Below the pieces are notes generated by a model. The model made no database searches. It was not told where the DNA came from and worked only from the letters and a program-made list of their open reading frames with translations. DNA of 64,000 nt from the IMG/VR virus record IMGVR_UViG_2862799924_000001, positions 7,607 to 71,606 of that record; one strand, given 5' to 3'. Made by a program: the position numbers and the translations under genes. How positions within the stretch are numbered: the stretch's first letter is position 1; every line of letters starts with the position of its first letter. Source of the DNA: a virus (taxonomy: Duplodnaviria > Caudoviricetes). This document shows, one piece after another, positions 11,101 through 56,552 of the stretch.

Positions 11101-12374
11101 GTACTTTTGACGGCAGACCATACCGTCTCCCAGTACTTGACCAGGAAGAATATGCCGACGCCAAGAGCAGCGACGCCCGCCACTACGGCAAGAACCGTCA
11201 GCGCCGCTCCTGCCATCAAAAGCAGGAAAGGGGAAGCGGCGACAGCCAAAGCCGTGGTCACAACGGCCGCAGCTCCAGCGGCGATCGCATAGAGAACCAG
11301 CGCCGCACGCCACGCAAGGAATCCCCGAACAAGATTGGCCAGCAGCTCAGGCGGCAGCGAAGCAAGCACCTTCAGCAGCACCGTGAGGACACTGAAGGAA
11401 TCGTCGCTGAGATCGGCAGCCGCCTTCGCAATATTCCCGAGAGCCGTCACCAGCGCCGAAAAGAATTCCTTGACATCCGGCGCCACAGAATGCACCTTGT
11501 CGAGGAAGCGCGTGAAGCCCCCGCCCTCGCCCCACGACTTGAGACTTTTTGCACCTGCGGCCATCGACTGGAACAGCCGGTTCCCGTAGGGGAGGAAGTC
11601 GCGGACACCCTGTCCGAGGACGCCCAGCATGCTCTGGGTCGTCTTGATGAATTTCTCCAGAGCAGGAACACCCTGCGCCACCATGGTGTCGATGAACTGG
11701 TCGAGCCCCGGGCCGTCCATCCACGCCGCGAAGTCCTTGGCGAGCCTCGTGATGACAGGGCTGACAGCCTTGACCAGCGGAGTGAACTTCTCGAAGTTGC
11801 GCGCGAGGGCGCCCATCACGATCGAGACGGGAGTGAGGGTGTCCTTCTCGGTCGTCTTGATGAACTCGCCCCAGGCGCCCTTCATGCCCGAGGTGGCTTT
11901 GACGTACTTCTGCTGGGCCGGCGTCAGCCCGTCGATGATCGTCTTGAGGTTCTTCTTCGCCTCGTTGACCTTCTTGAGCTGCTCCTCGTACGCCTTCGTG
12001 CCCGGTGTCAGACCGGCCAGGGTCTCCTTCTGCTTTTCGAGGGCATCTCTCGCACTCTTCGTGGCGCCGTTCGTCGCCTTGATGGCGCCGAAGAGAGCAC
12101 CTCCGAAAATGCCCGCAGCAAGGCCTGCTGCTGCGCCGGCCGCAGCGAGTCCGCCCGCTACACCCGTAGCCGCGACCGCGATAGGAACGAGGGCGGGAGC
12201 GAAGGCCAGCGCGGCGTTCGTGACGGACGTCAGCTGCTTGCCGATATTCGACGCGGCCTTGTCCATGGCGCGCAGGCCGTTGTCGAAATCCTGGATGTCG
12301 CGGCGGGCCCGGCGTATGCCCGCACCGCTGTAGGTGGACGTGATCCCGAATGTGAGGGACGTGATCGTGGCCAC
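8103..12374 (-). CDS. tape measure protein with C-terminal peptidoglycan hydrolase domains
   Basis: 1423 aa; Trp-periodic helical repeats; GGEVNGPGSGTSDSI motif; SLT-like RESGWRWNADNPSSDAYGIPQALPG...QIKWGLGYIKSRYG. Confidence 0.95.
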   Translation of the reverse strand: MATITSLTFGITSTYSGAGIRRARRDIQDFDNGLRAMDKAASNIGKQLTSVTNAALAFAPALVPIAVAATGVAGGLAAAGAAAGLAAGIFGGALFGAIKATNGATKSARDALEKQKETLAGLTPGTKAYEEQLKKVNEAKKNLKTIIDGLTPAQQKYVKATSGMKGAWGEFIKTTEKDTLTPVSIVMGALARNFEKFTPLVKAVSPVITRLAKDFAAWMDGPGLDQFIDTMVAQGVPALEKFIKTTQSMLGVLGQGVRDFLPYGNRLFQSMAAGAKSLKSWGEGGGFTRFLDKVHSVAPDVKEFFSALVTALGNIAKAAADLSDDSFSVLTVLLKVLASLPPELLANLVRGFLAWRAALVLYAIAAGAAAVVTTALAVAASPFLLLMAGAALTVLAVVAGVAALGVGIFFLVKYWETVWSAVKSTAMTVWNWLTNGLGQLALVFLGPVGGLILLWQNWNTIWGWIASKVTWIYDKILTPIGHGFQWLYNFLVGNSVIPDLINGIIYWFNFLLAPLRIAIDAVIAITAMAWTGIQATWDIFWATFGPIFTAAWTGLAATASAAWAVLVAAWNFLWTVIVSAYQVGWAILSGSWQIGWAWLTGAAQIAWSTLVGFWRVVWATVTGIWNVFYATFSAVFSGAWNVVVAIAAGVWNVIKAAWQALWAVVTAIFLTFAAVFTGRWGAAWNAIKDAASAIWNVLRTAWQALLNVLLTAFNAFAGVFTAAFRATWAAIQSIATAAWNALRSSFQAFLAALQNLWNTAWTAIRNIFQTILNAIVSIAQSAWNLIRAAVQVFITAVTGIWNTGWTAIRTFFQTAANGISAAAGALWDKLREIFSTGSTWLRNTFWNPVRDFFTKTIPNAFDSAVKAIGKAWDALKKVVMAPVQAIVNVVYNSGIRKLWNVVATKFGASELPEFKLPGFAKGGEVNGPGSGTSDSIVARLSAGEHVWTAKEVAGAGGHEAVAALRRQAMGSANVRALGDPDHRFADGGGVLGTGWGPDSGPDLVPDGIIGDAWNGIKGAVGKLKDLALGAISGPFGAAVDGVAKLGKGAVRKVVPGDGTALENMGVGMIDEMAKTAKAWVSDNDVAPDTGGGGGFIPWAKWKSGDGNKQTYGGVVVNRRTAAMLGHASRLAKTSFSMTQGSYSSGKLSAGTHSGGGAVDLGPAKDSVVGAMRSSGFAAWRRTRAEGFAPHIHGIAVGDPTASAAAKAQVKAFHAGRNGLSNNGPDTYKGGITSGKSVAAAKATGKSLNAGRGWGSHWSALEALWTRESGWRWNADNPSSDAYGIPQALPGSKMKSAGSDWKTNPATQIKWGLGYIKSRYGNPSKANSFQKSNNWYGLGTPGARSGPAIVGEHGPELVGFRGGERVESNTALRDLVGNGGTTTVEVNVPVTVQGDATPGTVDKLQRELVPKLTMAIKQGVGRRP

Positions 12375-18301: not shown

Positions 18302-19453
18302 CTAGAAGTCGTTGATCAGAGCCAGAGACTGGACGTAGAGCGAGAGCTTCTGTTCATCACTCGGTCCGTCCGGCTCGTCATCCACGACCGGTACCGACAA
18401 GATGGAGTCAAGCCGCTTGAGTTCATCCCTGATCCAGTCCAGGATTTCGGAATTGACCTTTGAGAGCGACTTCCCCTTTTCGGCGCGCAGAGCGACCACC
18501 CGTGACGCGCTGTCAATTACCCCTGCCGTACAGGCAAGAGCGTCAATCAGTTCCTCACTCAAGGTGAGGCCCTTCGCGTGCCCGTCACTGCGGTCCCGCA
18601 GCTTGGGCGGCTCTCGATCGGCGTCGCGAAGATGCGATGCCAAGTGCTTGTAAACGGCCTCGCGGTCAGGCTCGGGGACCCCGGAGTCGCCGCATACGCC
18701 GTTCAGCCGCGCAATGCCCTGAAGGCACGCGCGCAGGTTGGCCGGCCCGTCGACACCGTGGTGGTGAGCCAGCAGATAAGAGCCCTTCAACTCCGGGTCC
18801 CCGTCGGGGTCGACCCATGCGTACACGCTGCGGAGCTGAGAGGGCCGCGCGTCCTTGGGCAGTTCGCGGATCGTCTTGGCGCCGTCCCAGGCGCGCGTGA
18901 GCGTCGCCGTCTCCTGTGCCGGAATCGGCCCGCGGACGGCAGTTCCGCCCCTCACGGTGCGGAGCTGGTCATCGTCCACGGCACGGCCCTTCGTCGACAG
19001 AGTGCGCGTATTGATTCCGGCACCCAGCAGAACGGGTGACACCTCGTGCACAGTCACGGCTTCGAGATAGCGGACCGGCTGATCCTTCTCTTCACCGAAG
19101 GAGTATTTGTTGATGTCAAAGCCGTACGACCACTCACCCAGGCCGTCCTTCGCGAGTTCCTTTACGGTCTCGAAAGTGTCGCGGCCCGCCGTGGTGTTCA
19201 TGAAGAACTGCCCCTCAAGGACGGCCCGCTTCCCCTTCACCCGGATGACGCCCTTTCCCACCGGGGGTGCGCCGTCCCAGGACTTGTGTCCGTAGGCACT
19301 GATAACGACCGGCGCCCCGTCGGTGAAGGCATCCTCACGGGTGTAATCCCCGTCGTGGTCACGGACGTTCATAGTCGAGAAGACTGCCGAGACAATGCCC
19401 TTTTCCGCGTCCTTGATCTCCAGGCCGCCGGACAGGCTCTTACGCTCCATCAT
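18302..19453 (-). CDS. HK97-family prohead protease with C-terminal extension
   Basis: FSTMNVRDHDGD, WSYGF, HEVSPVLLGAG. Confidence 0.9.
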   Translation of the reverse strand: MMERKSLSGGLEIKDAEKGIVSAVFSTMNVRDHDGDYTREDAFTDGAPVVISAYGHKSWDGAPPVGKGVIRVKGKRAVLEGQFFMNTTAGRDTFETVKELAKDGLGEWSYGFDINKYSFGEEKDQPVRYLEAVTVHEVSPVLLGAGINTRTLSTKGRAVDDDQLRTVRGGTAVRGPIPAQETATLTRAWDGAKTIRELPKDARPSQLRSVYAWVDPDGDPELKGSYLLAHHHGVDGPANLRACLQGIARLNGVCGDSGVPEPDREAVYKHLASHLRDADREPPKLRDRSDGHAKGLTLSEELIDALACTAGVIDSASRVVALRAEKGKSLSKVNSEILDWIRDELKRLDSILSVPVVDDEPDGPSDEQKLSLYVQSLALINDF

Positions 19454-20864
19454 CTTGTCCTTCCGGCGTGCCGGATTGTTCCAGTTCAAGGGGTGCGGGA
19501 ATGGGCTCCGCGGGTTCGAGGCTCGCGGGCGGCTGCATCTGCACCGACACGAGACCGGTGTGCTGACCGACGAGCTGAGAGACGTCTTCGGCGAGAATCG
19601 CCTGCACGGCGGCATCAGGCTCGAAGCCCGCCTTGATGAGGGCGTCGATCGTGTTCGCCTGTACGCGCAGGATCTCTGCGCGGTCCTTGGAGTCCTCGCG
19701 CAGAAAGGCAATGTCTCGGTCGTCGTACCAGAGGCTCGCGCCGCTCGGCACCATCACCAGGTTTTCCAGGCACGACGCGGCCACGCGCCACAGCGGGCGC
19801 ATGGTGCCGTCCGCGAAGCGGCGGCGGCTCGCGGTGAAGTTGGAGGCGTTGAGCGCGGATCCCTGAAGGCCCTCGGAGAAGCCGACCCACGAGGGTGGGA
19901 CCCCGGCGGCGCTCGCTATGCGCGCTTCACCCTTGCCGACGGTCGACGTGAAGTCGAGCTGCCGGAAATCGTGGGTGAGCGGCGTGACATCGGCGCCGCC
20001 CTGGAGGAAGAGGGTCTTGTACGCGTTGAACGCACCCTGATGCCCGGCCTTGAAGGCCCGCACGAAGGAGTCGAATTGTTCCTTCTGAACGTCCTTGTCG
20101 AAGCGCACCACCATGTTCGGCACGGCCGCATGCTCGAAGAACGTCTTCTTGTGGACCGTCGCCGCGGTGTCCGCCTCGATCTCCCGCAGCACCGGCGTGA
20201 TCCAGGACATGCCGCGGAAACGGGCCGACGGGTCAGGGATCGGGCTGTAGTGGGCGACCTCATCAGGCATGAGCAAGACGGCGCCGCCGGTCGCCATAGG
20301 CCCGCCCGACGACATGACGCCGAACTGCCGCGGCTCGTAGAGGAACCCAATGATGCGTGCGTCCGCGGCGTACAGATCACCGGAGTGGCTGCCGATCAGC
20401 ATCGACACCCAGTCAGGCCGCAGCCGCGCGAGCCTGAGGCCGGGGCCGCTCGCGGCGTTGCCGTAACCGCCCTGATCGTCAACCTTCGTCCAGTAGCTGT
20501 TCCCGGCCAGCGACGCGTCCTGCTCCATGCGCGCCAGCAGCTCGCCCGTCGTCCCGGAGGCCCACGGGCGTTCGAGCAGGCTCAGTTCGCCCGACCCGAA
20601 GAGGTCACCGGGACGCCCGTTCCTGAACTGACGGAACTGGAACCGCGCCTCGGAGAACACCATCTGCCGCGCCATGACGCAGCTGAAGATGGGCCCGTTC
20701 CTCTTGAAGGCTCCTTCGACGTAGCCCTCGAAGTCGGTCTCGATCCGCTCCTTGTCGGCGGTGCTGCCCATGAAGAACGGGGCAGCGTCGATGTTCCAGA
20801 AGTCGGGCTGCGTGAAGGCCTTCCGGTTACGCCCCCAGGGGATGAGCTTCTTCCACCAGGCCAT
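19440..20864 (-). CDS. portal protein
   Basis: LAGNSYW, LRPDWV, RGMSWITP, IASAAGVPPSWVG. Confidence 0.93.
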   Translation of the reverse strand: MAWWKKLIPWGRNRKAFTQPDFWNIDAAPFFMGSTADKERIETDFEGYVEGAFKRNGPIFSCVMARQMVFSEARFQFRQFRNGRPGDLFGSGELSLLERPWASGTTGELLARMEQDASLAGNSYWTKVDDQGGYGNAASGPGLRLARLRPDWVSMLIGSHSGDLYAADARIIGFLYEPRQFGVMSSGGPMATGGAVLLMPDEVAHYSPIPDPSARFRGMSWITPVLREIEADTAATVHKKTFFEHAAVPNMVVRFDKDVQKEQFDSFVRAFKAGHQGAFNAYKTLFLQGGADVTPLTHDFRQLDFTSTVGKGEARIASAAGVPPSWVGFSEGLQGSALNASNFTASRRRFADGTMRPLWRVAASCLENLVMVPSGASLWYDDRDIAFLREDSKDRAEILRVQANTIDALIKAGFEPDAAVQAILAEDVSQLVGQHTGLVSVQMQPPASLEPAEPIPAPLELEQSGTPEGQDDGA

Positions 20865-20867
20865 CCG

Positions 20868-22442
20868 TCACCCCCATGCGCATCCGGCTTCGACGGGCGG
20901 CTTCTTGGCGCTCTGCTGAAGACCCCAGACCGCGAGCGTCGCGGCCTGGAGAGGAGAGATGTCGATCGCTGCCCCCCGCTGGTCCCAGGCCCACAGGTCG
21001 GCGACGGTGCGCTTGTCGGCGCCGGCGACGGCTGCGGAAAGAGGGACTTGATCGAGGTGTACGAGGGTCGGATGGTTGCCGCGCATCGGAACGACGGCAC
21101 TGCCGAAGCTCCCGCAGGCCTGCGCGAACTCGCGCGCCGTCGGATTGATGACCTCGATGCCCTTGGCTTCGAGCGCCGGTATCAGCGCGCCCGCCTGGCC
21201 GGCACGGTTGATGACGACCGCCTTCGGCCGCCACCGCTCCACCAGTTCCGCGACACGCTGCACGATCCACCGGTCACCGGGACGGTGATCCAGCACGTCG
21301 GACGATGTGATCTCTACGTGAGTCAGGCCGTCCGGATTCAGCCCGGCGACGACGATGCACCCGCTCTTGCGGTCCGGCGCCAGGTCGACCCCGAAGGACA
21401 GATCACCGACCGGCTCGGATGCCGGGTCGACGCAGGCCTTCCAGTAAGCCTCGCCGATGACACGCCACGACTCACCCTCGACCGGCCAGTCGCCGACCCC
21501 GAGGCGTTCGCGGCTGAACTCCTCTGCGGACATGCTGCGGCGCTCGGCTTCGATGTGCTCCACCGAGCGTTCCGGGGAGCGTGTGCCGCCGATGCGGATG
21601 CCGAAGCCGGGGTTCGCCTTCGGGTAGCTCGCGTACAGCCGTGAAAGCTGCCGGTCGTGCTCTCCCTGCGACCATCGCGGGTCGGCTTTGAAGTCCTGCG
21701 CGTCGTGCTCTTCGCACGTGGGAGGACAGAACTGGGAGCAGGGATCAATGCTCCATTCCAGGTAGCACAAGCGAGGATCGGAGCCCGCGATGCCGCGGGT
21801 GCGGACGCGACCGAGCGCGGTCGACTCCTTGGTGCCGGACGATCCCGTGTACCAGACCTGAGGGTCAGGCACGGCGGACAGTGTCGGCAGGATCGCGCCC
21901 ACCGCACGGTCGGTGAGGATCATCGCCTCGTCCAGCACGAGGCAGTCGCAGGAGAACCCGCGGCCACCGCCCGCGGTGCGCGAGCGGAAGCGGAGACGGC
22001 GCAGCGCACCATCGCGGAAGACCTCGATGCCCTCTTCGCCGTGCGAGCGGCTGACTCGCCGGACCATGCGGTCCAGGTCCGGGGTGTTCTCGATCAGCCC
22101 GAGGATGCGCTTGAAGGCTTCGAGAGACGTGTCGAAAAGGTGCGCGGAGTGGATGCACAGCTCTTCGTCCAGGAGGTAGAGGCTGGCCAGCTCGCGGGCT
22201 TCGAGGACGACGCCCTTCCCGTTCTGGCGTCCAACGATCAAACCCACCTCGAAGGCGGACCACGTGCCGTCAGCGCGCTGGCCGAGGGCCTCCTCCAGCA
22301 CCTGGCGCTGCCAAGGATCGAGGGTGAGCCCGGCGATCTCCGCAAGCTCCGCGACGTCTGCGCCCGCGCTGGAGACGCGCGGCGGCGCACTGAGGATCCG
22401 GGGGGCCTGATCGCCGCGCCCCGGTATGACGACACCGCTCAT
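20868..22442 (-). CDS. terL: terminase large subunit
   Basis: LDPWQ, Walker A VGRQNGKG, Walker B LVLDEA, nuclease FGVDLAPDR and DISPLQAATLA. Confidence 0.95.
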   Translation of the reverse strand: MSGVVIPGRGDQAPRILSAPPRVSSAGADVAELAEIAGLTLDPWQRQVLEEALGQRADGTWSAFEVGLIVGRQNGKGVVLEARELASLYLLDEELCIHSAHLFDTSLEAFKRILGLIENTPDLDRMVRRVSRSHGEEGIEVFRDGALRRLRFRSRTAGGGRGFSCDCLVLDEAMILTDRAVGAILPTLSAVPDPQVWYTGSSGTKESTALGRVRTRGIAGSDPRLCYLEWSIDPCSQFCPPTCEEHDAQDFKADPRWSQGEHDRQLSRLYASYPKANPGFGIRIGGTRSPERSVEHIEAERRSMSAEEFSRERLGVGDWPVEGESWRVIGEAYWKACVDPASEPVGDLSFGVDLAPDRKSGCIVVAGLNPDGLTHVEITSSDVLDHRPGDRWIVQRVAELVERWRPKAVVINRAGQAGALIPALEAKGIEVINPTAREFAQACGSFGSAVVPMRGNHPTLVHLDQVPLSAAVAGADKRTVADLWAWDQRGAAIDISPLQAATLAVWGLQQSAKKPPVEAGCAWG

Positions 22443-28105: not shown

Positions 28106-29269
<1,164 letters not shown>

Positions 29270-46532: not shown

Positions 46533-47543
46533 TCAGTCGCGGCGTGGGGCGGGTGGGATGCTCTCCTCCTTCGGGGCGAGCTTCGCGAACCGCTCGATCG
46601 CCATGTCGTGGTACGCGGCGTTCAGATCGATGCCGATGTACTGCCTGCCGAGTTGAAGCGCCGCGAGCCCAGTCGTCCCTGCCCCGCTGCACGGGTCGAG
46701 GACGATGCCGCCCGGCGTGCAGCCCGCCTTGATGCAGCGCAGCGGCAGGTCAACCGGGAAGGTGGCGAAGTGCGCCTGCGGGAACGGGCGGGTGCTGATC
46801 GACCAGACGTCGCCCGGATTGCGGCCCGTCGCGTCGACCTTGTCAACGCTCCACCTGCCGGTCGCTGTATGGGGCTTGTTTGCTGTGGTGTGCGCCCTGC
46901 GCGAGGGTGCCCTGTCTCCGCTGTACTGCTCGCGTATCGCGTCCAGGTTGAAGAAGTACTTTGCCTTCTTGGTGAACAGGAACAGTGACTCGCGCCGGTT
47001 CGACAGGCGGTCGCGCACGGAGGACGGCATGGCATTCGGTTTGTGCCAGATGATCTCGTTGCGGAGGATCCAGCCGTCGTCTTGCAGCGCGAACGCGACG
47101 CGCCAGGGGATGCCGAGCAGATTCTCGGTCGGCATCCCCGTGACGGTGCGCCTGGCGGCCGCCGCTGTCGCCCCGTCCCTGCGGAAGGATGGTCTGCCTC
47201 CCTCCTGCTTACGCTGCCCGCTGTTCCCCGTTCCGTGCCACCGCTCGTTGAAATCCTTATTGGGCGCCCCCATCCCTGAGCTGTAGCTGTCTCCCAGGTT
47301 CAGCCACAGCGTCCCGTCGTCGGCGAGCACGCGCCGCGCCTCAGCAAACAGCGCACGCATCGTCTCGACATACGCAGCGGGCGTCGGCTCCAGCCCGTAC
47401 TGGCCGGGCGCGCCGTAGTCGCGGAGCCCGTAGTACGGGGGGCTGGTGACGATGCAGTTCACCGACCGCTCGGGGGCGGCCGCCAGTACTTCGAGCGCGT
47501 CGCCGACCAGCAGCAGGGCGCCGTCACCGTGGTGGTGAATCAC
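46533..47543 (-). CDS. N4-C/N6-A DNA methyltransferase (beta class)
   Basis: VTSPPYYGLRDY; HFATFP; VLDPCSGAGTTG. Confidence 0.93.
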   Translation of the reverse strand: MIHHHGDGALLLVGDALEVLAAAPERSVNCIVTSPPYYGLRDYGAPGQYGLEPTPAAYVETMRALFAEARRVLADDGTLWLNLGDSYSSGMGAPNKDFNERWHGTGNSGQRKQEGGRPSFRRDGATAAAARRTVTGMPTENLLGIPWRVAFALQDDGWILRNEIIWHKPNAMPSSVRDRLSNRRESLFLFTKKAKYFFNLDAIREQYSGDRAPSRRAHTTANKPHTATGRWSVDKVDATGRNPGDVWSISTRPFPQAHFATFPVDLPLRCIKAGCTPGGIVLDPCSGAGTTGLAALQLGRQYIGIDLNAAYHDMAIERFAKLAPKEESIPPAPRRD

Positions 47544-48454
47544 CTTCCCTCCTTTTTCTGCTGATTGCGGTACGCGCTGCGCACCGTTGCTTCCGCCTGG
47601 CGCTGCCCGCCGTCGCCGCTGTATGCCGCCCCGAGCTGGTCGACGGCGTCCTCGATGGCGATGCCGTCGGAGCACGCGGAACGGGCAGCCCAGTACAGGG
47701 CGTTCGAGCGGTTGCCCGGTGCGGCGTCGCGGACGGTGTCGACCAGCCCGCCGATCGAGCCGCCGCGGCGCGGCTGCGCGAACAGCGGACGTGCGGGGCG
47801 GGGCTTCTCCCGGCACAGCTCGATCAGCCATGGCGGGGCGTCGCGCACGGGCAGGTCGTTCTCCGCGATGTAGGGGCCGGACGTGGTGCGTGAGCCGGCC
47901 GCCAGTACATAGCCGCCCTGCGACCCGCCATTGCCCCGCACGTCGACCAGGCCCTTGACCGGGGACGCCTGCGAGGCGGTCAGGCCCGGCGGCCACCGGA
48001 AGTACAGGTGCAGGCCGAGCCGCCCGGTCTGCACCCGGTGGGTGTCCATCAGCTCTGTCCAGCTGCCGCCGTACAGCTCGCAGAGGTGGCGCAGCACGTC
48101 GGTGCCGTCGACCAGCGGACCGAGCTTCTCGTGCAGCGCCGCGTATGGCGTGCCCTCCAGCTGGCCCGGCCCCTTGCAGACATCGCAGTCGACGACCAGC
48201 AGGCCCGACGGCCCGCACGCGATAGCCGGATTCGCGAGGGGCGAGTACGTCCACGCTTCGATGATCTTGTTCAGGTCGGTGGTCGCCCACTCCCCCCATC
48301 GGATCTTGTAGGGCTGCTGTGGGGTGATGAGGTGCGGCTGCTTGTCGATGACGTCGCCGGACTGAGGGCACGTGGTCCCGGCCGGATTGCAGGGGAAGAC
48401 CGACCAGCCGCGCTGCACTGCGGCGATGGCGTGGGCGATCAGGTTCTCTGTCAT
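47540..48454 (-). CDS. bifunctional primase/polymerase (Prim-Pol)
   Basis: GWSVFPC, ATTD, GLLVVDCD, GLHLYF, VDVRG...GGYVLAAGS, GNRSNALYWAA. Confidence 0.92.
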   Translation of the reverse strand: MTENLIAHAIAAVQRGWSVFPCNPAGTTCPQSGDVIDKQPHLITPQQPYKIRWGEWATTDLNKIIEAWTYSPLANPAIACGPSGLLVVDCDVCKGPGQLEGTPYAALHEKLGPLVDGTDVLRHLCELYGGSWTELMDTHRVQTGRLGLHLYFRWPPGLTASQASPVKGLVDVRGNGGSQGGYVLAAGSRTTSGPYIAENDLPVRDAPPWLIELCREKPRPARPLFAQPRRGGSIGGLVDTVRDAAPGNRSNALYWAARSACSDGIAIEDAVDQLGAAYSGDGGQRQAEATVRSAYRNQQKKEGR

Positions 48455-48580
48455 TTACAGGGCGTGCTGCCACAGCCAGACGGCCAGGCCGAACCCGATC
48501 GCCAGCATGATCAGGCTGCCGACGACGGCCATCACGACGACGACAACGGCGTACGCCTTCGACGCCCGTTCGAAATCCAT
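48455..48580 (-). CDS. small membrane protein
   Basis: MDFERASKAYAVVVVVMAVVGSLIMLAIGFGLAVWLWQHAL. Confidence 0.55.
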   Translation of the reverse strand: MDFERASKAYAVVVVVMAVVGSLIMLAIGFGLAVWLWQHAL

Positions 48581-48638: not shown

Positions 48639-49361
48639 TCACCGGATGATCCCGGCGGCGGAAGCGGCGGCCAGCCAGCCCGCGTACTCGTGGGTGATGC
48701 CGTCGTACAGGTCGGCGTCGCTCACGGTGTGCGGGTCGCGGGCGTGGAAGAAGCTGGCGTTGTCGACCTTCCGGCCGCGCAGGTCATCGAGCTTCTCCAG
48801 GAACTCGATGCGCTCCCCGTATCCGACGAACGCCCAGAAGATCGGCAGCGAGGACGCGTCCTGGAGTGCGTGCTTCGCGTCGGGCTTGCTGTCGGGGGCA
48901 CCGTCGCTCTGGAAGATGACCAGCGCTGGGTCGGTGGCGCCGGAGCGCTGGTAGTGCGCGATGACCGACCGCATGGCCGAGCCGTAGTTGGTGGTTCCCC
49001 ACCGCACTGCCGTGTGCGTGGCGTCGATGACCCCGGTGTGACTGTGCAGGCGGACGTCGACCGGGCGCTCGGCAACCGTGCCGAAGTAGATCAGCGGCAC
49101 CGTGCCGTCGTCGTCCAGGTTGGCGGACAGCCCCAGCGCCTGCTCTGCCAGCCGCTGAACGCTGCCGTCCTTGTAGAAGCCGTGCATCGAACCCGAGTGA
49201 TCGAGGACGAGGTATACGGCGGCGCGCTGGCCGGTGAGCCCGGACTTCTCCAGGCTGACGGCGGCCGACTTGGTGAGGCTGACCAGCCCCGGCGGGACCT
49301 TGTCGAGCGTGATCGCCGGACCGGTGCCGGTCGGCGGTGGAACATTCTTGCTGCGGAACAT
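48639..49361 (-). CDS. vWA domain protein (TerF-associated type)
   Basis: AAVYLVLDHSGSM MIDAS, LDDDG, FQSDG, RKVDNASFF. Confidence 0.85.
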   Translation of the reverse strand: MFRSKNVPPPTGTGPAITLDKVPPGLVSLTKSAAVSLEKSGLTGQRAAVYLVLDHSGSMHGFYKDGSVQRLAEQALGLSANLDDDGTVPLIYFGTVAERPVDVRLHSHTGVIDATHTAVRWGTTNYGSAMRSVIAHYQRSGATDPALVIFQSDGAPDSKPDAKHALQDASSLPIFWAFVGYGERIEFLEKLDDLRGRKVDNASFFHARDPHTVSDADLYDGITHEYAGWLAAASAAGIIR

Positions 49362-49479: not shown

Positions 49480-50319
49480 CTAGAAGGGCGGCGGCTCCTG
49501 CGCCTGGAAGGTCTTCGCGATCATCGTTGCCTGCTCGGCCGTCATCCCTTCCGGGTTGACGCCCTTGCTCTGCAGGAACGCGACCAGCTGCGGGTCAAGG
49601 GCGGCAGACCCAGAGGCAGGGACGGTCTGGGCAGGGGCTGCCTGCGCTGAACCGGCAGGGTTCCCCCACTGAGGGGCCGGGCTACCCGGTGCAGTCGCTG
49701 CCGGGGCACCCGCACCAGTCGGTGCCTGGGCAGGCGTCGCCGTGGCAGCAGGTGTGCCCCATTGCCCCTGCGGAGGGCCCGCCGGTGCCGCTGCTCCGGG
49801 TGTGCCCTGCCACGGGTCGTACGGCAGCTGCTGCGAGACGTGTTGAGGCTGCTGCCCCCACGCCTGCTGCTGGGCAGGCGCCGCCTGCGCGGTCGGCTGG
49901 GTGAAGGCGTTGCGCGGGTGGGCGTTGATGTACTGCGTCGCCATCTGGACGTCGGCGTCGGAGTACTCGGCCAGGTAGAAGGCGCCGGACTTCTGTCCCT
50001 GCGCCGCTGTCTGCGCGAGCCTGCCCAGCACCATGCCGCCGCCGCAGTGCTTCTTGATCTGCGGGACCAGCGCCTTGCCGCCGACGCGTGCGTTGCTCAG
50101 GACGGTCGGCTGTCCCGTCTCCGGGTTGACCAGGTCGATGATCGCCACGTCGGCTTCGACCGCGTCGTACGGCTCAGGCTGGCCGTTCTGCCCGGTGCCC
50201 ATGTGCTGGCTGACGCTGTCCGGGTAGAACAGGAACAGCTTGCCGACCCACTCGGGATGGTCGCGCGGCGTGAACCGGTCGCCGCGGTCAGGCTGCGCGA
50301 AGGGATTAGGGGTTGTCAC
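49480..50319 (-). CDS. putative ssDNA-binding protein
   Basis: Beta N-domain, long Q/P/A-rich tail ending EPPPF; replication module. Confidence 0.6.
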   Translation of the reverse strand: MTTPNPFAQPDRGDRFTPRDHPEWVGKLFLFYPDSVSQHMGTGQNGQPEPYDAVEADVAIIDLVNPETGQPTVLSNARVGGKALVPQIKKHCGGGMVLGRLAQTAAQGQKSGAFYLAEYSDADVQMATQYINAHPRNAFTQPTAQAAPAQQQAWGQQPQHVSQQLPYDPWQGTPGAAAPAGPPQGQWGTPAATATPAQAPTGAGAPAATAPGSPAPQWGNPAGSAQAAPAQTVPASGSAALDPQLVAFLQSKGVNPEGMTAEQATMIAKTFQAQEPPPF

Positions 50320-50459
50320 GAAGATCTCTCTTTCCTGTTACGGGAGTTCGGTTGTCTGCGCGCCGCAGCCGGCGCATATCCAGCGCAGCGGGCCGCGCGC
50401 CGTCTCGGCCCACCAGTGCAGCTGCGGGAAGAGGCGGTGCACCAGTACGCGGAGCCACC

Positions 50460-50663
50460 TCACGCGGCCTGCTTTTCTTGCACGGCATCGAATGCGGCCC
50501 GCACCTCCGAGTCGCGGTAGCGGCGGTGCCCGCCGAGCGTGCGGACCGAAGAGAGCTTCCCGGCCTGCGCCCAGCGGGACACCGTCTTGACGTCCACGCG
50601 GAAGATCTCAGCCACCTCACCCGGGGTGAGCAGCTTCTCGTAATCGAGTTCCATATCTGTCAC
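50460..50663 (-). CDS. bldC: BldC-family MerR-like HTH regulator
   Basis: LLTPGEVAEIFRVDVKTVSRWAQAGKLSSVRTLGGHRRYRDSEVRA. Confidence 0.88.
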   Translation of the reverse strand: MTDMELDYEKLLTPGEVAEIFRVDVKTVSRWAQAGKLSSVRTLGGHRRYRDSEVRAAFDAVQEKQAA

Positions 50664-50666
50664 CTC

Positions 50667-50852
50667 CTATTGGGGCAGCACCTCGAACATGGGGCGCGAG
50701 AATCCGCCGGAATCCTGTCCGGGCGTGATGTCATCTTCGAGTTCCGGGATGTACTTGTTCGGCACCGAATAGCTGATCTCGCAGCGTTCCAGGTTCCCAG
50801 GGCTTTCGGGGTCGTCCTCCCACCACTGCACGGCGGGATTACTGTCGACCAT
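50667..50852 (-). CDS. small hypothetical protein
   Basis: AAGGAGAAGG RBS; MVDSNPAVQWWEDD... Confidence 0.5.
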   Translation of the reverse strand: MVDSNPAVQWWEDDPESPGNLERCEISYSVPNKYIPELEDDITPGQDSGGFSRPMFEVLPQ

Positions 50853-50869
50853 TACGCCGCCTTCTCCTT

Positions 50870-51043
50870 GCCTGCCAAGCCGCGGCTTACCGCGACGCGC
50901 CGGAACTTGCCCTGACATAACCCGCCTGCCTTGCCAGACCGCGCCGCAACCGGACGCGCATTGACATGCCCGGCCTCGCCTCGCCTGCCACGCCGTGCCA
51001 AGCCTGGCCTTGCCACTCCAATCCCGGACCCGCCACGCCTGCC
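50870..51043 (-). ncRNA. 3-unit (NN-GGY)n array delimited by GGCAGGC, putative guide RNA array
   Basis: GCCTGCC at 50870, 50924, 50983, 51037; inserts of 47, 52, 47 nt in exact 5-nt register. Confidence 0.8.
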
Positions 51044-51048
51044 GTGCG

Positions 51049-51471
51049 CTACGCCGCTTCGTCGTTCAGGTCTTCGCGGATCATCTCTGTGAATTCCTCG
51101 AAGTCCTGGTAGCGGCGCTTAAGCGTCTGCCATTCACGCGCCATGTCGGCCAGTACGAGGCGGCGCGTGAAGTCATCGGATACGACCGTTTCGACGGGCT
51201 CGTATACGTGGCCGTGCTCGCGGCGCACCGCGTGGTAGGCGCGCACCGATTTGGCGGGACCGCTCTCGTCCGCCTCGCGGTACACCACCTTCACGGAGCG
51301 GATCAGTTCGTGCGCCTGCTGCTGCCGGTACTTCTCACCGGCCACGCCGTCGTTCCATTCGAAGCGGGAATGCAGCGGATGAGATGCGTCGCGCGCCTCA
51401 TCCACGATCAGTGACGGCGTGAGCTGCCCCCGCTGGTCGTAGATGGATTGCAGCTGGTCGCGCAGGCTCAC
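51049..51471 (-). CDS. partner protein of the RAMP-like gene
   Basis: GTG overlaps the upstream stop; GQLTPSLIVDEARDASHPLHSRFEWND..AGEKYR..QAHELIRSV. Confidence 0.8.
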   Translation of the reverse strand: MSLRDQLQSIYDQRGQLTPSLIVDEARDASHPLHSRFEWNDGVAGEKYRQQQAHELIRSVKVVYREADESGPAKSVRAYHAVRREHGHVYEPVETVVSDDFTRRLVLADMAREWQTLKRRYQDFEEFTEMIREDLNDEAA

Positions 51472-52076
51472 GAGATGACCTCGACTTCCCGCGACTGGTC
51501 GATGTCGTACGTGCCGAAGTCGCCGCCCTTCTCGGGGCGCCACTCCCCCACGCCGACGCCCATTCCGCCCGCCGCGATCAGGGAGATCACGGATTCGCGG
51601 GTCAGCATCGACTTGACGTAGACGACGTCCAGTGCCGTGGTCCACTCCGGGAACTCGGGGCGGTAGCGCAGGTCGTGGCCGCCGCGCCCCACCGTCACGG
51701 TGTCTTCGCGCATGTGCGGGGTGCCGTCGATGCGGGTCATGCCGCGGCCGTCGTCGCCGACCTCGCCACGGAAGAACATGAACTGCCGCAACGCGGTCAT
51801 CGTCACGCCCTGGTAGAACCGGGCGCCGCCGATCGTCGCCGCCTTGAACGCGATAACCGGGAAGCCGTAGCCGCCGTCCTTCAGGTGGTAGAAGGCGGCC
51901 TCGTACTCGGCTTCCGGGTCCTTGCTCTGCTTCGGAGACTTGCGTCCCTGCATGTTGTCGAGCATCTGCCGCTTCGCCTTTTCACTGAAGCGGTGCACGA
52001 TCAGCGGCGACGTTCCCACAATGGGGATACGTATGGTTTCCGCGTCGATCTTTTCGAGCTGAATTTCAGCGGTCAT
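51468..52076 (-). CDS. standalone RAMP/Cas7-like protein (Vipr-like)
   Basis: IPIVGTSPLIVH first strand; GFPVIAFKAA; RYRPEFPEW; G-rich loop GGMGVGVGEWRPEKGGDFGTY. Confidence 0.75.
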   Translation of the reverse strand: MTAEIQLEKIDAETIRIPIVGTSPLIVHRFSEKAKRQMLDNMQGRKSPKQSKDPEAEYEAAFYHLKDGGYGFPVIAFKAATIGGARFYQGVTMTALRQFMFFRGEVGDDGRGMTRIDGTPHMREDTVTVGRGGHDLRYRPEFPEWTTALDVVYVKSMLTRESVISLIAAGGMGVGVGEWRPEKGGDFGTYDIDQSREVEVIS

Positions 52077-52101
52077 CTTCTCTTCCTTCACGGGTAGTTG
52101 T

Positions 52102-52735
52102 TTGCCTTGCCATGCCTGCCATGCCTTACCAGACCTTGCCGGGACGGGACTTGCCAGAGCGTGCCTGCCTTGCCGTAACCGGCCACGTCGGGACGTAACT
52201 TGCCCCGCCATGCCTGCCGCGCCGAACCGCAACGATCCGTGCCATGCCTAAACTCGCCTAGCCTGCCGCGCCTTTCCCTGCCTCGCCCGAACTCGCCGAA
52301 CCATGCCTGCCACGCCTCGCCAGAACTTGCCGGACCGGGACTTGCCAGAGCGCGCCTGCCTCGCCAAAGCCATTTCCCGCCCCGCCTTGCCTGCCATGCC
52401 CCAACTCACTGCGCCGTGCCGAAACCCGCCCAGCCTGCCGCGCCAAAACGCACGTCGCCCAGACGCGCCGCAACTCGCCTCGCCTGCCATGCCCTGCCGG
52501 GCCATTCCGGTCCATGCCCGGCCACGCCTGCCCTGCCGAGTCTTGCCACGCATTACCGAGCCGTGCCATTTCACGCCGCGACCTGACTGCCGAACAGCAC
52601 CCCGCCATGACGGGCCAATCCGCGCCCTGCCTGCCGTGCCGCGCCGAACCGAGCCTGGACAACCCTTGCCTGGCCCCGACTTGCCCAACCGCGCCTGCCT
52701 CGCCAAAACTGAACTCACCGCAACCAACTTGGGCC
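52102..52735 (-). ncRNA. 12-unit (NN-GGY)n array delimited by GGCAGGC, putative guide RNA array
   Basis: 13 delimiters from 52114 to 52693; inserts of 37, 42, 52 or 57 nt (one irregular 28 nt) in 5-nt register. Confidence 0.85.
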
Positions 52736-52747
52736 ACGTCACTTCAT

Positions 52748-54541
52748 CTACCGCCCCGGACACCCCCGCTCCATGTTCGGATCACCGGGCGCATACCAGT
52801 CGCAGAATTTGCAGTCGCTCGGATCGACGGGGAATTGGCGTGCCACTTCAAGCGGCGTGCGCTCTGTCGGGCCTGCTCCGATGTAGTCGTGGATACCGTT
52901 GTCGATCCTGTCCACCCGCGCCAGCGCATCGCGCGCTATCTGCGGGTCGTAGGGTTCGACGACCGCATACAGATCGTCCAGCGAAGACGACTCCATGGGC
53001 CACGACAGCAGCGCCACGAAGTCGACGCGCTCGCCTTGCAACCTCGCGCCGAATCCGTACACGTGCAGCTGTGTTCGCTGCGTCGGCGTCATGCCTTCCG
53101 TGCGCAGCTTGTTCTGTGACCACTTCCCCTGGATCTTGTGGTCATCGACCATGAACAGGACGCGGTCAAGGAGATCCGTCGTGCCGCGCGGTACGAGACC
53201 GCTGGGGAACTTCAGCGGCACCTCGACAGCGAAGCGTCCTGTGTTGCCGCTCGCCCACGTGAACACCTCGGCCAGCTCCTTGTGGATGGCCGTGCCCTTG
53301 AAGGAAGCCCAGCCGTCGCCGCCCGGATTGACCGGCGGTATCCGCAGCAGCGACATGGCAAGGCGCCTGTCGCAGGGGCTGCCGATCTCGGACGGCCCGA
53401 GCGTCGTCTGCGCCGATCGGTTGTCGTTCGTCTTCCGGTTGCCGAACGAGTAGAAGACCTCCCGCATCCTGGCGACCAGCCGTTCAGCCATCATCGTCAT
53501 CGGCACGGCAGGCTCTGCCGCGGGCGTCTTGGCCGGCTGCGAGAACGGCGAACCCGGCTGGGCGAAGAGCGGCTCAGCCGGTGCCGCAGCCGCAGGTTCC
53601 GTCCGGCTTGAGGCAGTCGGGGTGAGAGCCGCATCCGGCGGCGGCACAGGGGCCGGTGACCTTTCCGGGGCATCCGCAGGTGCCGGGGCTGCACTGTCCG
53701 CAGGCGTGGCGTCCGGGGTGGGGGCATCCTTCCGGGAAAGCCTCGTCACCGCCGCGACGCCCAGCTCTCTCTTGCTGGACGCTGCGGTCTTCCCCGGGCA
53801 CTGCGCCTGCCGCCTCTCGTACATCCACAGGTGCGGCCCGTGATCCTTCGTGATGTGGCACGGCTGCTCCTGCTGGCTCGATGCCCCGGCACCAGCACCA
53901 TCCGCAGAGCCCGCACCAGTTGGGTTCGTCGCAGGTGTTGAGGGGCTTGAAGGCGGCGCCTCGGCTGCGTCCGGCCGCGGCGGCGAGTCCTGCTGCGTAG
54001 TCGTCGACTCCGGGCAGGGCGGCGGCAGCTCCCTGTTCTCGATCGCTCTTGCGGCTGCCTCTGCCCATTTGCTGATCATCTCCTCGGACTCGTTGGGGGC
54101 CGCACTGTCGGCAGTCGGCCGGACATCCGTCGCACCGTCCAGGCGGGCAGTAGGCGCAGTCTGGTTCTGACCCGATGTAGGGGACTCCTTCACCGTCGGG
54201 CACGCGCTCTCTCCGCTCTCGTACGGCTTGCCGGACATGGGGCACTTCACGCGCTTCGACGTGGGTGTCTCGCCCTCGCGCATGTGATCGGTGAAGTACC
54301 CTGTCGCGCCGTCCAGTACGGGCGAGCCGGGGCAGGCGGGGCACGGCGCATAGTCACGGCCGATGACGGGCCGCTCGTCGTCGGGCCCCGTCTCGGGGCC
54401 GCGCCGGATCAGCCAGGCGGGGATGTCGCGCTTCGAGCGCGAGCACTCCGTCCCCTTCTCCCGGTCGTGCTTGCGGTAGTGGTTGTCCACCGTCGCGACC
54501 ACGTTCTTGTGGCAGGAGATGCAGTGATACCTATCGGCCAC
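52748..54541 (-). CDS. Cas4/RecB-like PD-(D/E)xK exonuclease with long N-terminal Zn and low-complexity region
   Basis: LGPSEIGSPCDRRL, GTAIH, GTTDL, DDHK, QLHVYG, CKFC...C. Confidence 0.85.
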   Translation of the reverse strand: MADRYHCISCHKNVVATVDNHYRKHDREKGTECSRSKRDIPAWLIRRGPETGPDDERPVIGRDYAPCPACPGSPVLDGATGYFTDHMREGETPTSKRVKCPMSGKPYESGESACPTVKESPTSGQNQTAPTARLDGATDVRPTADSAAPNESEEMISKWAEAAARAIENRELPPPCPESTTTQQDSPPRPDAAEAPPSSPSTPATNPTGAGSADGAGAGASSQQEQPCHITKDHGPHLWMYERRQAQCPGKTAASSKRELGVAAVTRLSRKDAPTPDATPADSAAPAPADAPERSPAPVPPPDAALTPTASSRTEPAAAAPAEPLFAQPGSPFSQPAKTPAAEPAVPMTMMAERLVARMREVFYSFGNRKTNDNRSAQTTLGPSEIGSPCDRRLAMSLLRIPPVNPGGDGWASFKGTAIHKELAEVFTWASGNTGRFAVEVPLKFPSGLVPRGTTDLLDRVLFMVDDHKIQGKWSQNKLRTEGMTPTQRTQLHVYGFGARLQGERVDFVALLSWPMESSSLDDLYAVVEPYDPQIARDALARVDRIDNGIHDYIGAGPTERTPLEVARQFPVDPSDCKFCDWYAPGDPNMERGCPGR

Positions 54542-54628: not shown

Positions 54629-55033
54629 TCACGTTGCGTCTCCTCTCAGCCGTCGTGCAGGCGGGTTGAACAGGTAGTGGTGCGCCCGTATGAAGAAGTC
54701 GAGTTCGTCGCGGGCGTGGCCCAGCATCGAGTTGCAGGGGCGGCAGAGCAGCCCGCGCACCGCGCCGCTGGCGTGGTCGTGGTCGACGCTGAGACGGCGC
54801 GTCGCCCCGGTGGCGCGGCGGCAGATCGCACAGCGGCCGCCCTGAAGGCGGTACAGCTTGGCGTAGTCGCCCGCGGCGAGGCCGTACGTGTTCTGCACGG
54901 CCAGCTCGTGCGCCGCCTCCCTACGCCGCTTCTTCACCGCCCGGTGGCACGTCGCGCAGCGGGGGCCGGGGTAGGGAGCCGGACGCTTGCTGTCCTCCGG
55001 GCAGTCCTTGCAGCGTCTCTTCTTCGGCGGCAT
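54629..55033 (-). CDS. endonuclease VII-like resolvase
   Basis: QGGRCAIC, LSVDHDH, VRGLLCRPCNSMLG. Confidence 0.92.
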   Translation of the reverse strand: MPPKKRRCKDCPEDSKRPAPYPGPRCATCHRAVKKRRREAAHELAVQNTYGLAAGDYAKLYRLQGGRCAICRRATGATRRLSVDHDHASGAVRGLLCRPCNSMLGHARDELDFFIRAHHYLFNPPARRLRGDAT

Positions 55034-55199: not shown

Positions 55200-56552
55200 T
55201 CAGGCCGCCATGGATTCCAGTGCGCAGCCGACCAGGTCGCGGGCCATGTTCACGGGCACCGCCTGTCCGGCGAGGCGGACGCGGTCGCGTTTGCTGAGGC
55301 GGCCGGCCAGCCAGTCGTAGCTGTCGGGGAAGTCCATGAACCGCGCGTACTCCGGGGGTGTGATCATGCGGAAGCCGCAGTCGTTGATGTCCGGCTGCGG
55401 GTTCGGCATCAGCGCCGCCCGGTCCACCGTGGTCACCGTCATGAACGGCTCGTCGGTGGTCCGCACCCGGGTCCGCCCGTAGTACGGGATGACCAGACCG
55501 TGGTGGTTGCCGCTCGCGCACACCGTGCTCAGGGGCTCCGAGACCCGCCGGGTCTTGCTGCTGCCGCCGCGCAGTTCCGCGATGAACGGCGGCACGACCA
55601 GCCCGGTCTCGTTGCGGCCGGTGACCGTGCGCATGGGCACTTCCACGGGGAACGGCCGCTTGCCGTCACGTCCTTCGACGGGCACCAGGGCCGGACCGTA
55701 CTCCCGCAGCCCGTGCTCGATACGGCTCATGGTCTTCGCCGCGAGCGGGGTCTTGCGCTCGCCGATCACCGGCGTCGGCAGTGACCAGTCGATGACGTCG
55801 CCCGCCGGGCGCACGTGCGGCTCCACCGGCGCCGCGCAGGTCCGGCACACGAAGTCGTACTGGCGCCGGTACTTGCCTGCGTCGCGGCCGTTCTTCCACG
55901 TCTGCCGCCCGGTCGTCGGACCGCAGGCGGCGCACAGTGCGGCGGGTGCGATCCACGCGTCGGTGTCCGGGCACGGCGTGCCCTTGGGGTGCATGAGGCA
56001 GAACCAGCGGTCGCGCCACTGGTGCGCCGGATCCCCGAGGCGCCCCGCGTGGGCCGCGTTGAGGAAGACCTCGTGCAGGCATTTCCCGCCGTCCGCCATG
56101 GCGATCTTCCAGGCGCGGAAGCCGACCCAGGTGCGGACTTCGACGACGTTCTCGACGATGATGAAGCGGTACTTGTGGATCTCGTCGAACCGCTGGACGT
56201 CCCACATCGTCGACCGCGCGCGCACCGCGCTCTCGTCCACGGCCATGAAGCGCGCACCCTGGGCGATGCTGTGAGCCGTGCACGACGGGGAGAACCACGC
56301 GCAGTCGGTGCGCGGGTAGCGCCGCGGGTCGACCTGCGAGATGTCCGCGCAGTCGTGATCCGTGTCCGGGTTGTTGGCCTGGTGCACGTCGACCGACGGG
56401 CGCCAGTGGTTGATCGCGACCCGGGTCTTCTGTCCGGGGATCAGGTGGATGCCGCGGGTCGAGCCGCCGCCCCCGCAGAAGCCGTCCAGCCATTCGACGG
56501 GCCCGAGTCTGACGAGCAGCTCGAAGAGCGCCATCCGTTGTGCAAGGTTCAC
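55200..56552 (-). CDS. C5-cytosine DNA methyltransferase
   Basis: DGFCGGGGS (I), FSPSCTAHS (IV), ENVVE (VI), QWRDR (VIII), AGQAVP (X). Confidence 0.92.
   Translation of the reverse strand: MNLAQRMALFELLVRLGPVEWLDGFCGGGGSTRGIHLIPGQKTRVAINHWRPSVDVHQANNPDTDHDCADISQVDPRRYPRTDCAWFSPSCTAHSIAQGARFMAVDESAVRARSTMWDVQRFDEIHKYRFIIVENVVEVRTWVGFRAWKIAMADGGKCLHEVFLNAAHAGRLGDPAHQWRDRWFCLMHPKGTPCPDTDAWIAPAALCAACGPTTGRQTWKNGRDAGKYRRQYDFVCRTCAAPVEPHVRPAGDVIDWSLPTPVIGERKTPLAAKTMSRIEHGLREYGPALVPVEGRDGKRPFPVEVPMRTVTGRNETGLVVPPFIAELRGGSSKTRRVSEPLSTVCASGNHHGLVIPYYGRTRVRTTDEPFMTVTTVDRAALMPNPQPDINDCGFRMITPPEYARFMDFPDSYDWLAGRLSKRDRVRLAGQAVPVNMARDLVGCALESMAA

Follow-up and report, generated by a model that had tools for sequence, protein, structure and literature searches.

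A probable VIPR system with staggered guide arrays in a prophage of a high-GC actinobacterium

The locus described here lies in a stretch of 64,000 nucleotides (nt), positions 7,607 to 71,606 of the IMG/VR virus record IMGVR_UViG_2862799924_000001 (Duplodnaviria; Caudoviricetes), and this whole stretch is referred to below as the window. The carrier, whose record has a length of 71.6 kb, is a temperate siphovirus-like prophage of a high-GC (68%) actinobacterium. Its minus strand contains a gene encoding a minimal RAMP protein of 202 amino acids (aa), a second gene of 140 aa and, on both sides of this pair, arrays of pentamers that can be read as short guide RNAs. The whole is very probably a Viral Interference Programmable Repeat (VIPR) system with the staggered-array architecture, and the names vipr (protein Vipr), candidate vap (vipr-accessory protein) and vrRNA are used throughout for the two genes and the guides.

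The vipr gene is an uninterrupted reading frame ending in a stop codon. An initial annotation of this sequence had recognized a minimal Cas7-like RAMP from four motifs, and all four are present in the intact 202-aa open reading frame (ORF) on the minus strand at 51468-52076: IRIPIVGTSPLIVH (residues 15-28), GFPVIAFKAA (71-80), RYRPEFPEW (137-145) and GGMGVGVGEWRPEKGGDFG (170-188). In the mechanical ORF list the frame stays open upstream to a TTG at 52232, an extension that crosses the repeat array. Because the ATG at 52076 is preceded by the Shine-Dalgarno-like sequence GAAGGAAGAG and the homologs measure 202-211 aa, the shorter version is likely the actual gene. It is not a chance frame, since it has thousands of homologs (4951 clusters at E <= 0.001 in a 90%-clustered protein collection and 3680 cluster representatives at E <= 0.001 in a 50%-clustered library) and matches phrog_4652, a family of unknown function, with an E value of 3.5e-42. 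Pfam returned nothing significant for Vipr, and NCBIfam gave no match at E <= 1.

The structure of Vipr was modeled using AlphaFold2 and an alignment of 83 homologs (A1), with a mean pLDDT of 95.8 and a pTM of 0.89. The model comprises a first strand, beta1 (residues 12-21), RRM helix 1 (74-87), a long beta-hairpin or 'thumb' (133-154) and a helix (160-173) followed by a glycine-rich loop (171-188). The initial assignment of the motifs to beta1, to the region around GFPVIAFKAA, to the thumb and to the glycine-rich loop coincides with these elements. Compared with the PDB by Foldseek, the model gave 56 matches at E <= 0.001, the best one being 6xn3_F (E 8.5e-6), and among the matches listed all are backbone subunits of CRISPR RAMP complexes: Csm3, Cmr4/Cmr6, type VII Cas7 and type III-D/E. 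The predicted RAMP fold, RRM helix included, is thus borne out by AlphaFold2 and Foldseek. A Vipr structure is absent among these Foldseek matches, the structure library ending on 2026-04-08. In the structural alignments the sequence identity with the Cas7-group backbone subunits of CRISPR systems is 8-16%.

The absence of a CRISPR context, which the initial annotation had also pointed out, holds as well. Neither cas, Cas5, Cas6, large or small subunit and adaptation genes nor CRISPR repeats were found at the vipr locus, where the neighbors are phage replication and recombination genes, and a PADLOC search with cas and defense-system models matched none of Vipr, the candidate vap and four neighboring proteins. 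A Csm3/Cas7 fold, a phage-borne gene and cas genes not found nearby are also what one would expect of a solo phage Cas7-like protein acting as an anti-CRISPR, or as a decoy that binds host CRISPR RNAs or Cas complexes, in which case the repeats would be unrelated to it. This explanation has to be weighed against the sequence homologies of Vipr: no Cas7 sequence family is detected, neither in NCBIfam nor with PADLOC, and the homolog of solved structure is a Vipr protein.

VIPR systems have been in print since April 2026 (bioRxiv 10.64898/2026.04.26.720920) and are described in preprints of one group, devoted to their discovery (10.64898/2026.04.26.720920), to cryo-EM (10.64898/2026.04.26.720927) and to the competition between phages and satellites (10.64898/2026.10.15.759431). 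According to these preprints, such a system combines Vipr, which is a minimal Cas7-like RAMP, with vrRNAs made of alternating GGY/NN pentamers and, in most cases, with a single accessory gene (vap). Vipr is reported to polymerize on these repeats with one protomer per pentamer; GGY is flipped into Vipr, the NN dinucleotides pair with double-stranded DNA (dsDNA) reading NNxNNx (the '1-nt skip rule'), and transcription is silenced (10.64898/2026.04.26.720920, 10.64898/2026.04.26.720927). The natural targets given in the VIPR preprints are competing phages, satellites and other VIPR systems, and self-targeting is described as absent from the published systems (10.64898/2026.04.26.720920).

When the PDB was searched with the single Vipr sequence (phmmer), the sole significant match was chain 36pp_D, the 'SUSP1 Vipr protein' (E 3.1e-5). 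The A1 profile finds the same chain with an E value of 3.3e-13, profile positions 21-199 being aligned with residues 4-189 of 202. In SUSP1 Vipr, the residues holding GGY are H17, R138, D177, W178 and R179 (10.64898/2026.04.26.720927). In the HMMER alignments they correspond to H28, R139, E178, W179 and R180 of the window protein, and across the 83 sequences of A1 these columns contain H in 70, R in 83, E in 63 and D in 19, W in 70 and R in 83. Two residues of the Y3 pocket of SUSP1 Vipr align poorly, E71 falling in an insertion and M72 standing opposite F77. The named closest relatives of Vipr and of the candidate vap belong to Thermoactinospora and Streptomyces.

The flanking arrays inferred in the initial annotation are real and consist of minus-strand, pentamer-phased GG tracts at 52695-52116 and 51039-50872. 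The upstream array fills the stretch between the exonuclease stop (52748) and the vipr start (52076) and contains twelve candidate vrRNAs, U1 to U12; three others, D1 to D3, form the downstream array. The guides were parsed at the recurring GGCA/GGC junctions and are 45-65 nt long, or 9-13 pentamers. Every unit is terminated by GGCAG, and the following unit starts on the last G of this terminal pentamer. As neighboring units have this G in common, each boundary sets the register back by one base. This layout fits the published staggered-array architecture, the legend of fig. S18 of 10.64898/2026.04.26.720920 mentioning 'staggered vrRNA arrays' with a one-base overlap.

Leaving aside U7, which is degenerate, 14 guides were cleanly parsed and provide 143 pentamers. 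Position 1 is G in 97% of them, position 2 is G in 78% and T in 18% (G/T, 96%), position 3 is C in 73% and T in 20% (C/T, 93%), and positions 4-5 are mixed. Pentamers deviating from GGY, mostly to GTY, are absent from the first and from the last units (0/14 each) and are found in 4-8 of the 14 guides at unit positions 2-8. Phased GG tracts of at least 6 units occur nine times on the minus strand of the whole window, eight of them in the vipr locus; the plus strand has two, both short or weak and away from it. A TRF run over 50500-53000 detected periods of 5, 9, 10 and 49 nt only, all of them produced by the pentamer arrays. Rfam had no match in 50300-53000, so that no hammerheads are interspersed in the arrays. 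A consensus scan of the same segment found 0 promoters and 0 terminators, a result that is uninformative for a high-GC actinobacterium.

Both arrays end in a truncated remnant. After U12, three units reach into the ribosome-binding site of vipr, and after D3 the remnant overlaps that of the next small ORF. The 83-aa ORF listed at 50667-50918 (minus strand) begins within D3, and the ATG at 50852, behind AAGGAGAAGG, is its likelier start. The truncated last unit of the downstream array would thus serve at the same time as its ribosome-binding site, as that of the upstream array does for vipr. U8 is nearly a duplicate of U12, 3 of 9 guide dinucleotides being different.

The same association can be observed in other genomes. 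A set of 44 related loci was assembled from 2 GenBank phages, 4 bacterial genomes and 38 IMG/VR contigs; three are duplicates, which leaves 41 distinct loci. A tract of at least 6 phased GG units lies beside vipr on the same strand in 42 of the 44, mostly beginning about 450 nt past the vipr stop. Of the two others, one ends 131 nt past the gene and one is a weak 27-residue match. Opposite-strand tracts were found in only 4/44. The 41 distinct loci contain 258 tracts of at least 8 units; GGCAG terminates 195 of these, and in 104 of the 195 the last base is common to the start of another tract. A logo pooled from 3178 units of the 41 loci gives G in 94% at position 1, G in 84% and T in 14% at position 2, and C in 72% and T in 20% at position 3. 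Positions 4 and 5 are near-uniform, each base representing 18-35% of this pooled, not orthologue-by-orthologue, logo. The relatives repeat the interior non-GGY pattern of the window guides and their gradient at the 3' end. One IMG/VR relative carries, opposite to the vipr strand, a 36-unit phased GG tract (L020:4528-4792) that is far longer than any vrRNA unit.

The vipr-vap-array module is also present in cultured Gordonia phages and in Cluster F-type mycobacteriophages (Cheoctovirus). In GenBank, the array of Gordonia phage Pipp (L001:3123-3338) is covered by a coding sequence for a hypothetical protein, gene 43 (3117-3386), and that of Mycobacterium phage Donkeykong (L002:2031-2320) by another, gene 48 (1980-2366). 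The Vipr and vap homologs of both phages are also recorded as 'hypothetical protein'.

These two records raise the question of whether the tracts encode Gly/Ala/Arg-rich repeat proteins, the Cas7-like protein working without them. In the window too, open frames cross the array on the minus strand (52248-52763 and 52258-52737), but such frames are expected by chance at 68% GC. The period is 5 nt and not 3, and conservation falls on positions 1-3 of the pentamer while positions 4-5 are near-random, the opposite of a codon-wise constraint. No single frame sees a repeated peptide, because the register shifts by one base at every unit boundary. A coding function of the tracts can hardly be maintained on these grounds.

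If the tracts are guides, the code established for VIPR should allow the identification of targets. A pattern was made for each guide from the NN of its units, with one free base between consecutive dinucleotides and without the constant AG at the end. Shuffled guides were used as controls, with 100 shuffles per guide on the own record. U1 is the longest guide, with 12 dinucleotides and 24 specified bases. Its pattern has exactly one 24/24 match in the IMG/VR viral contigs (L045:1501-1535) and none, in an exact scan, in the metagenome contigs. The 397-aa ORF that contains the site shares 52% identity with the window exonuclease, and the site occupies its codons 371-382, among the final 30. On the coding strand, the paired bases are positions 1-2 of the codons for V-A-D-D-C-K-F-C-P-F-H-A and all skipped bases are third positions. 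The terminal AG of U1 would not pair at this target, which fits a boundary role of the terminal unit. A chance origin of the 24-base match is unlikely, since two guides of 20-22 specified bases gave no match and two of 18-20 matched one implausible site each.

The targeted record (67 kb, CheckV 100% complete) has no Vipr homolog and is collinear with the window prophage through the tail genes, the terminase, the prim-pol, the exonuclease and the endonuclease VII. The site occupies the stretch 33-67 nt before the next gene begins. This 256-aa gene, with a weak, sub-threshold match to a LuxR-type helix-turn-helix, directly follows the exonuclease where the window has its VIPR cassette. All eleven sibling virus records that bear the exonuclease, namely the target phage (G001) and G403-G412, are without a Vipr homolog; the cassette is accessory in this phage group. 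At the same site of four further exonuclease homologs U1 scores 19-20/24, against a shuffle maximum of 18. The homologous site of the window itself (52791-52825) is the best one of U1 on its own record and reaches 16/24, the level of the shuffles. The own allele escapes U1, because 8 of the 24 positions read are different.

No guide scores above its shuffles on the own 71.6-kb record, and there is thus no self-target. The 13 guides other than U1 do not rise above their shuffles either on the target phage, on 17 exonuclease-bearing loci or on 10 whole sibling records (636 kb). In the reverse direction, the 258 guides of the relatives were compared with 325 kb of loci and with the own record; none matched the window convincingly, the best score (13/14 for a guide of 7 dinucleotides) being about that expected by chance. 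One sequence of a relative (L011:3609-3663) matches 19/20 in one locus and 18/20 in nine loci, with 16/20 on its own vipr and 16/20 on the homologous vipr site of the window (around 51562-51590). It looks like the anti-VIPR guides mentioned in the VIPR preprints.

The solo Cas7 explanation can be judged at this point. Besides the homology to a solved Vipr, it leaves aside the GGY/NN arrays present on the same strand in 42/44 related loci and the array unit that reads a perfect codon-phased 24-base site by the Vipr code. It is therefore very improbable, and the suggestion of the initial annotation that this protein has its own RNAs, rather than being a solo anti-CRISPR, is supported by the SUSP1 homology and by the arrays both here and in the relatives.

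Several points nevertheless weigh against the assignment of the locus to VIPR. At the protein level, the Asp of SUSP1 Vipr that contacts G1 is a Glu in the window protein. In the arrays, T replaces G at pentamer position 2 in about a fifth of the units, interior units are non-GGY in up to 8/14 guides, and no conserved 3' tail or pseudoknot of the sort known from characterized type II vrRNAs is visible. As for the targets, one was identified for 1/14 parsed guides, and the perfect site of U1 was found once only. Exact scans gave 0 sites for D2 in viral and in metagenome contigs, and 0 for D1 in viral contigs. The single sites of D3 (an 860-aa ORF of an AT-rich phage) and of U8 (a tail-like gene of a phage with 34-39% GC) were judged to be chance matches, since the patterns specify 18-20 bases and the host range would be implausible. 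A search for D2 in 401 genomes of the class to which the Thermoactinospora relative belongs, with at most 2 mismatches tolerated, gave 3 matches against 1 for the reversed control, which is at the level of noise.

Some of these observations could also mean that the cassette is idle or decaying, with most guides degenerate and silencing lost. Such a state would account for the 13 of 14 guides left without a target in the sequences searched, for the many interior units off GGY, for the 1-nt slip of U7 and for the truncated units that end both arrays. On the other hand, the vipr and vap ORFs are intact, the GGY-contact residues are kept and the AlphaFold2 models are confident. That vrRNAs are often degenerate in their interior is reported in 10.64898/2026.04.26.720920 and the relatives are no different in this respect. 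Targets are expected to be missing where the competitors are unsequenced, and the databases did hold one perfect target for the 24-base guide. An idle cassette is accordingly an unlikely explanation, and a VIPR system remains by far the most satisfactory description of the locus.

The candidate vap belongs to phrog_15946 (function unknown), and a homolog follows vipr on the same strand in 41/44 related loci. Its likeness to a winged helix is weak and the structural comparison stays below threshold: Foldseek returned nothing at E <= 0.001. A PDB sequence search gave no match, and among the Pfam matches at E <= 0.1 of 39 vap members none recurred in more than 2. DNA binders resembling a winged helix (WH-like) or a helix-turn-helix (HTH-like) are predicted for the vaps of some VIPR types (10.64898/2026.04.26.720920). 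The window gene has no detectable sequence family.

The features of the locus and the other genes discussed are listed in Table 1. The exonuclease gene, which adjoins the upstream array, is outside the VIPR system; a Cas4-like label for its C-terminal domain was dropped, as no Pfam or NCBIfam family was found. The window also encodes an FtsK-like ATPase, DUF2637/HTH and MerR-type excisionase-like proteins and two DNA methyltransferases. The two methylases and the vWA-TerF-like protein possibly have anti-restriction or other accessory functions.

Table 1. Coordinates of the vipr locus and of other genes in the window.
Feature	Position	Strand	Remark
vipr (Vipr, 202-aa minimal RAMP)	51468..52076	minus	uninterrupted translation ending in stop
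Candidate vap, 140 aa	51049..51471	minus	GTG start overlaps vipr stop (GTGA)
Upstream staggered array, twelve candidate vrRNAs	52100..52709	minus	GGCAG/G junction parse
U1	52695-52631	minus	
U2	52631-52587	minus	
U3	52577-52528	minus	
U4	52528-52484	minus	
U5	52484-52435	minus	
U6	52435-52391	minus	
U7	52391-52356	minus	degenerate, 1-nt slip
U8	52356-52307	minus	
U9	52307-52263	minus	
U10	52263-52214	minus	
U11	52214-52165	minus	
U12	52165-52116	minus	
Downstream staggered array, three candidate vrRNAs	50860..51047	minus	same GGCAG/G junctions
D1	51039-50985	minus	55 nt
D2	50985-50926	minus	60 nt
D3	50926-50872	minus	55 nt
Phage exonuclease, outside VIPR	52748..54541	minus	phrog_1674 'exonuclease', E 8e-44
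Tape measure	8103-12374		
Head maturation protease	18302-19711		
Terminase large subunit	20868-22442		
Lysin-like tail protein	28106-29233		
N6/N4 DNA methylase	within 46533-48473	minus	
Prim-pol	47540-48454		
vWA-TerF-like protein	48639-49361	minus	
Endonuclease VII	54629-55033		
C5 cytosine methylase	55200-56552	minus	

The comparison with published systems shows where the locus stands. The idea of the initial annotation was right and is no longer new, VIPR being a published system. Like VIPR, the window has one minimal RAMP, which is about 200 aa long and a homolog of SUSP1 Vipr, a two-gene operon (vipr and candidate vap) located in a phage or prophage, with no CRISPR array or cas genes, and same-strand GGY/NN guides of 9-13 units that abut with the one-base overlap of the fig. 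S18 legend. The natural target follows the 1-nt skip with the skipped bases at third positions, and it is found in a competing phage and not in self. Seven VIPR types (I-VII) with 667 representatives have been published (10.64898/2026.04.26.720920), and the experiments reported so far concern E. coli and Pseudomonas phage systems (SUSP1; a P. fulva prophage). In these type II systems the vrRNAs are described as about 100 nt long and separate, with an invariant 3' tail or pseudoknot (SUSP1 clade), whereas the window guides are of 45-65 nt, abutting and tail-less, with only the terminal GGCAG constant. The window system is not type II, because its units lack the 3' tail, are short and abut. It also differs from the characterized systems by its actinobacterial host, its 68% GC and the position of the main array upstream of vipr, and from SUSP1 by the Glu in place of the G1-contacting Asp and by the T often found for G at pentamer position 2 inside the guides. 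The main text of 10.64898/2026.04.26.720920 makes no mention of Mycobacterium, Gordonia, Streptomyces or 'Actino'.

With Cas7, Csm3 and Cmr4 of the CRISPR-Cas systems the window protein has the fold alone in common: the identity is as low as stated above and no Cas7 sequence model matches. With 5 nt and 3 flipped bases, the period here differs from the 6 nt and 1 flipped base of the class 1 CRISPR backbone. The guides would moreover read dsDNA discontinuously, as described in the VIPR preprints, in contrast to CRISPR class 1. TIGR-Tas resembles the window locus in that a small effector of mobile elements has its guides encoded next to it by a tandem array of short period, but TIGR has an 18-nt period and a Tas with a Nop domain, against 5 nt and a RAMP effector in the window. 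The arrays of CRISPR, TIGR and VIPR are grouped by period in 10.64898/2026.10.21.760802.

By analogy with the characterized systems, the following mode of action can be proposed. An early-gene transcript would run through the exonuclease, the upstream array, vipr, vap and the downstream array and, given such co-transcription, would yield about 15 short vrRNAs of 9-13 GGY/NN pentamers, delimited by the terminal GGCAG, one base of which also belongs to the guide that follows. The 202-aa Vipr protomers, one per pentamer, would assemble into a helical filament in which GGY is buried and NN exposed, as in SUSP1 and P. fulva. The exposed dinucleotides would pair with dsDNA as NNxNNx, in a gapped R-loop or a triplex, and transcription of the gene or operon would be blocked as in these two systems. 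A helper function is probable for the adjacent winged-helix-like protein of 140 aa, on the model of vap1 in SUSP1. U1 appears to be directed against the exonuclease gene of a collinear, Vipr-less sibling, at its 3' end, which would suggest a role in the competition with related phages. A roadblock at this place could stop transcription into the downstream early genes of the sibling, and the prophage may thus exclude or handicap superinfecting siblings.

A more specific proposal can be made only tentatively. The VIPR cassette, placed immediately after the exonuclease gene, might be an allele-exclusion weapon between near-identical temperate phages, its first guide, U1, being directed against the codons of the cysteine motif (C-K-F-C) that ends the sibling exonuclease, and the tail-less array might depend on a biogenesis unlike that of type II, for example a cutting at GGCAG/G defined by the Vipr filament. 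Under this proposal, mutation of the targeted site would be difficult, since positions 1 and 2 of each codon are all that U1 reads.

The general picture of what VIPR is remains unchanged by the window locus. In public actinophage records, vrRNA arrays are annotated as hypothetical proteins, and this is an annotation error. The cultured actinophages that possess the module constitute a tractable set. The target of U1, which occurs naturally in a distant clade, bears out the 1-nt-skip code independently, with the allele of the carrier escaping, and the tail-less staggered-array variant, with its 4951 protein clusters (E <= 0.001), is widespread in actinobacterial phages.

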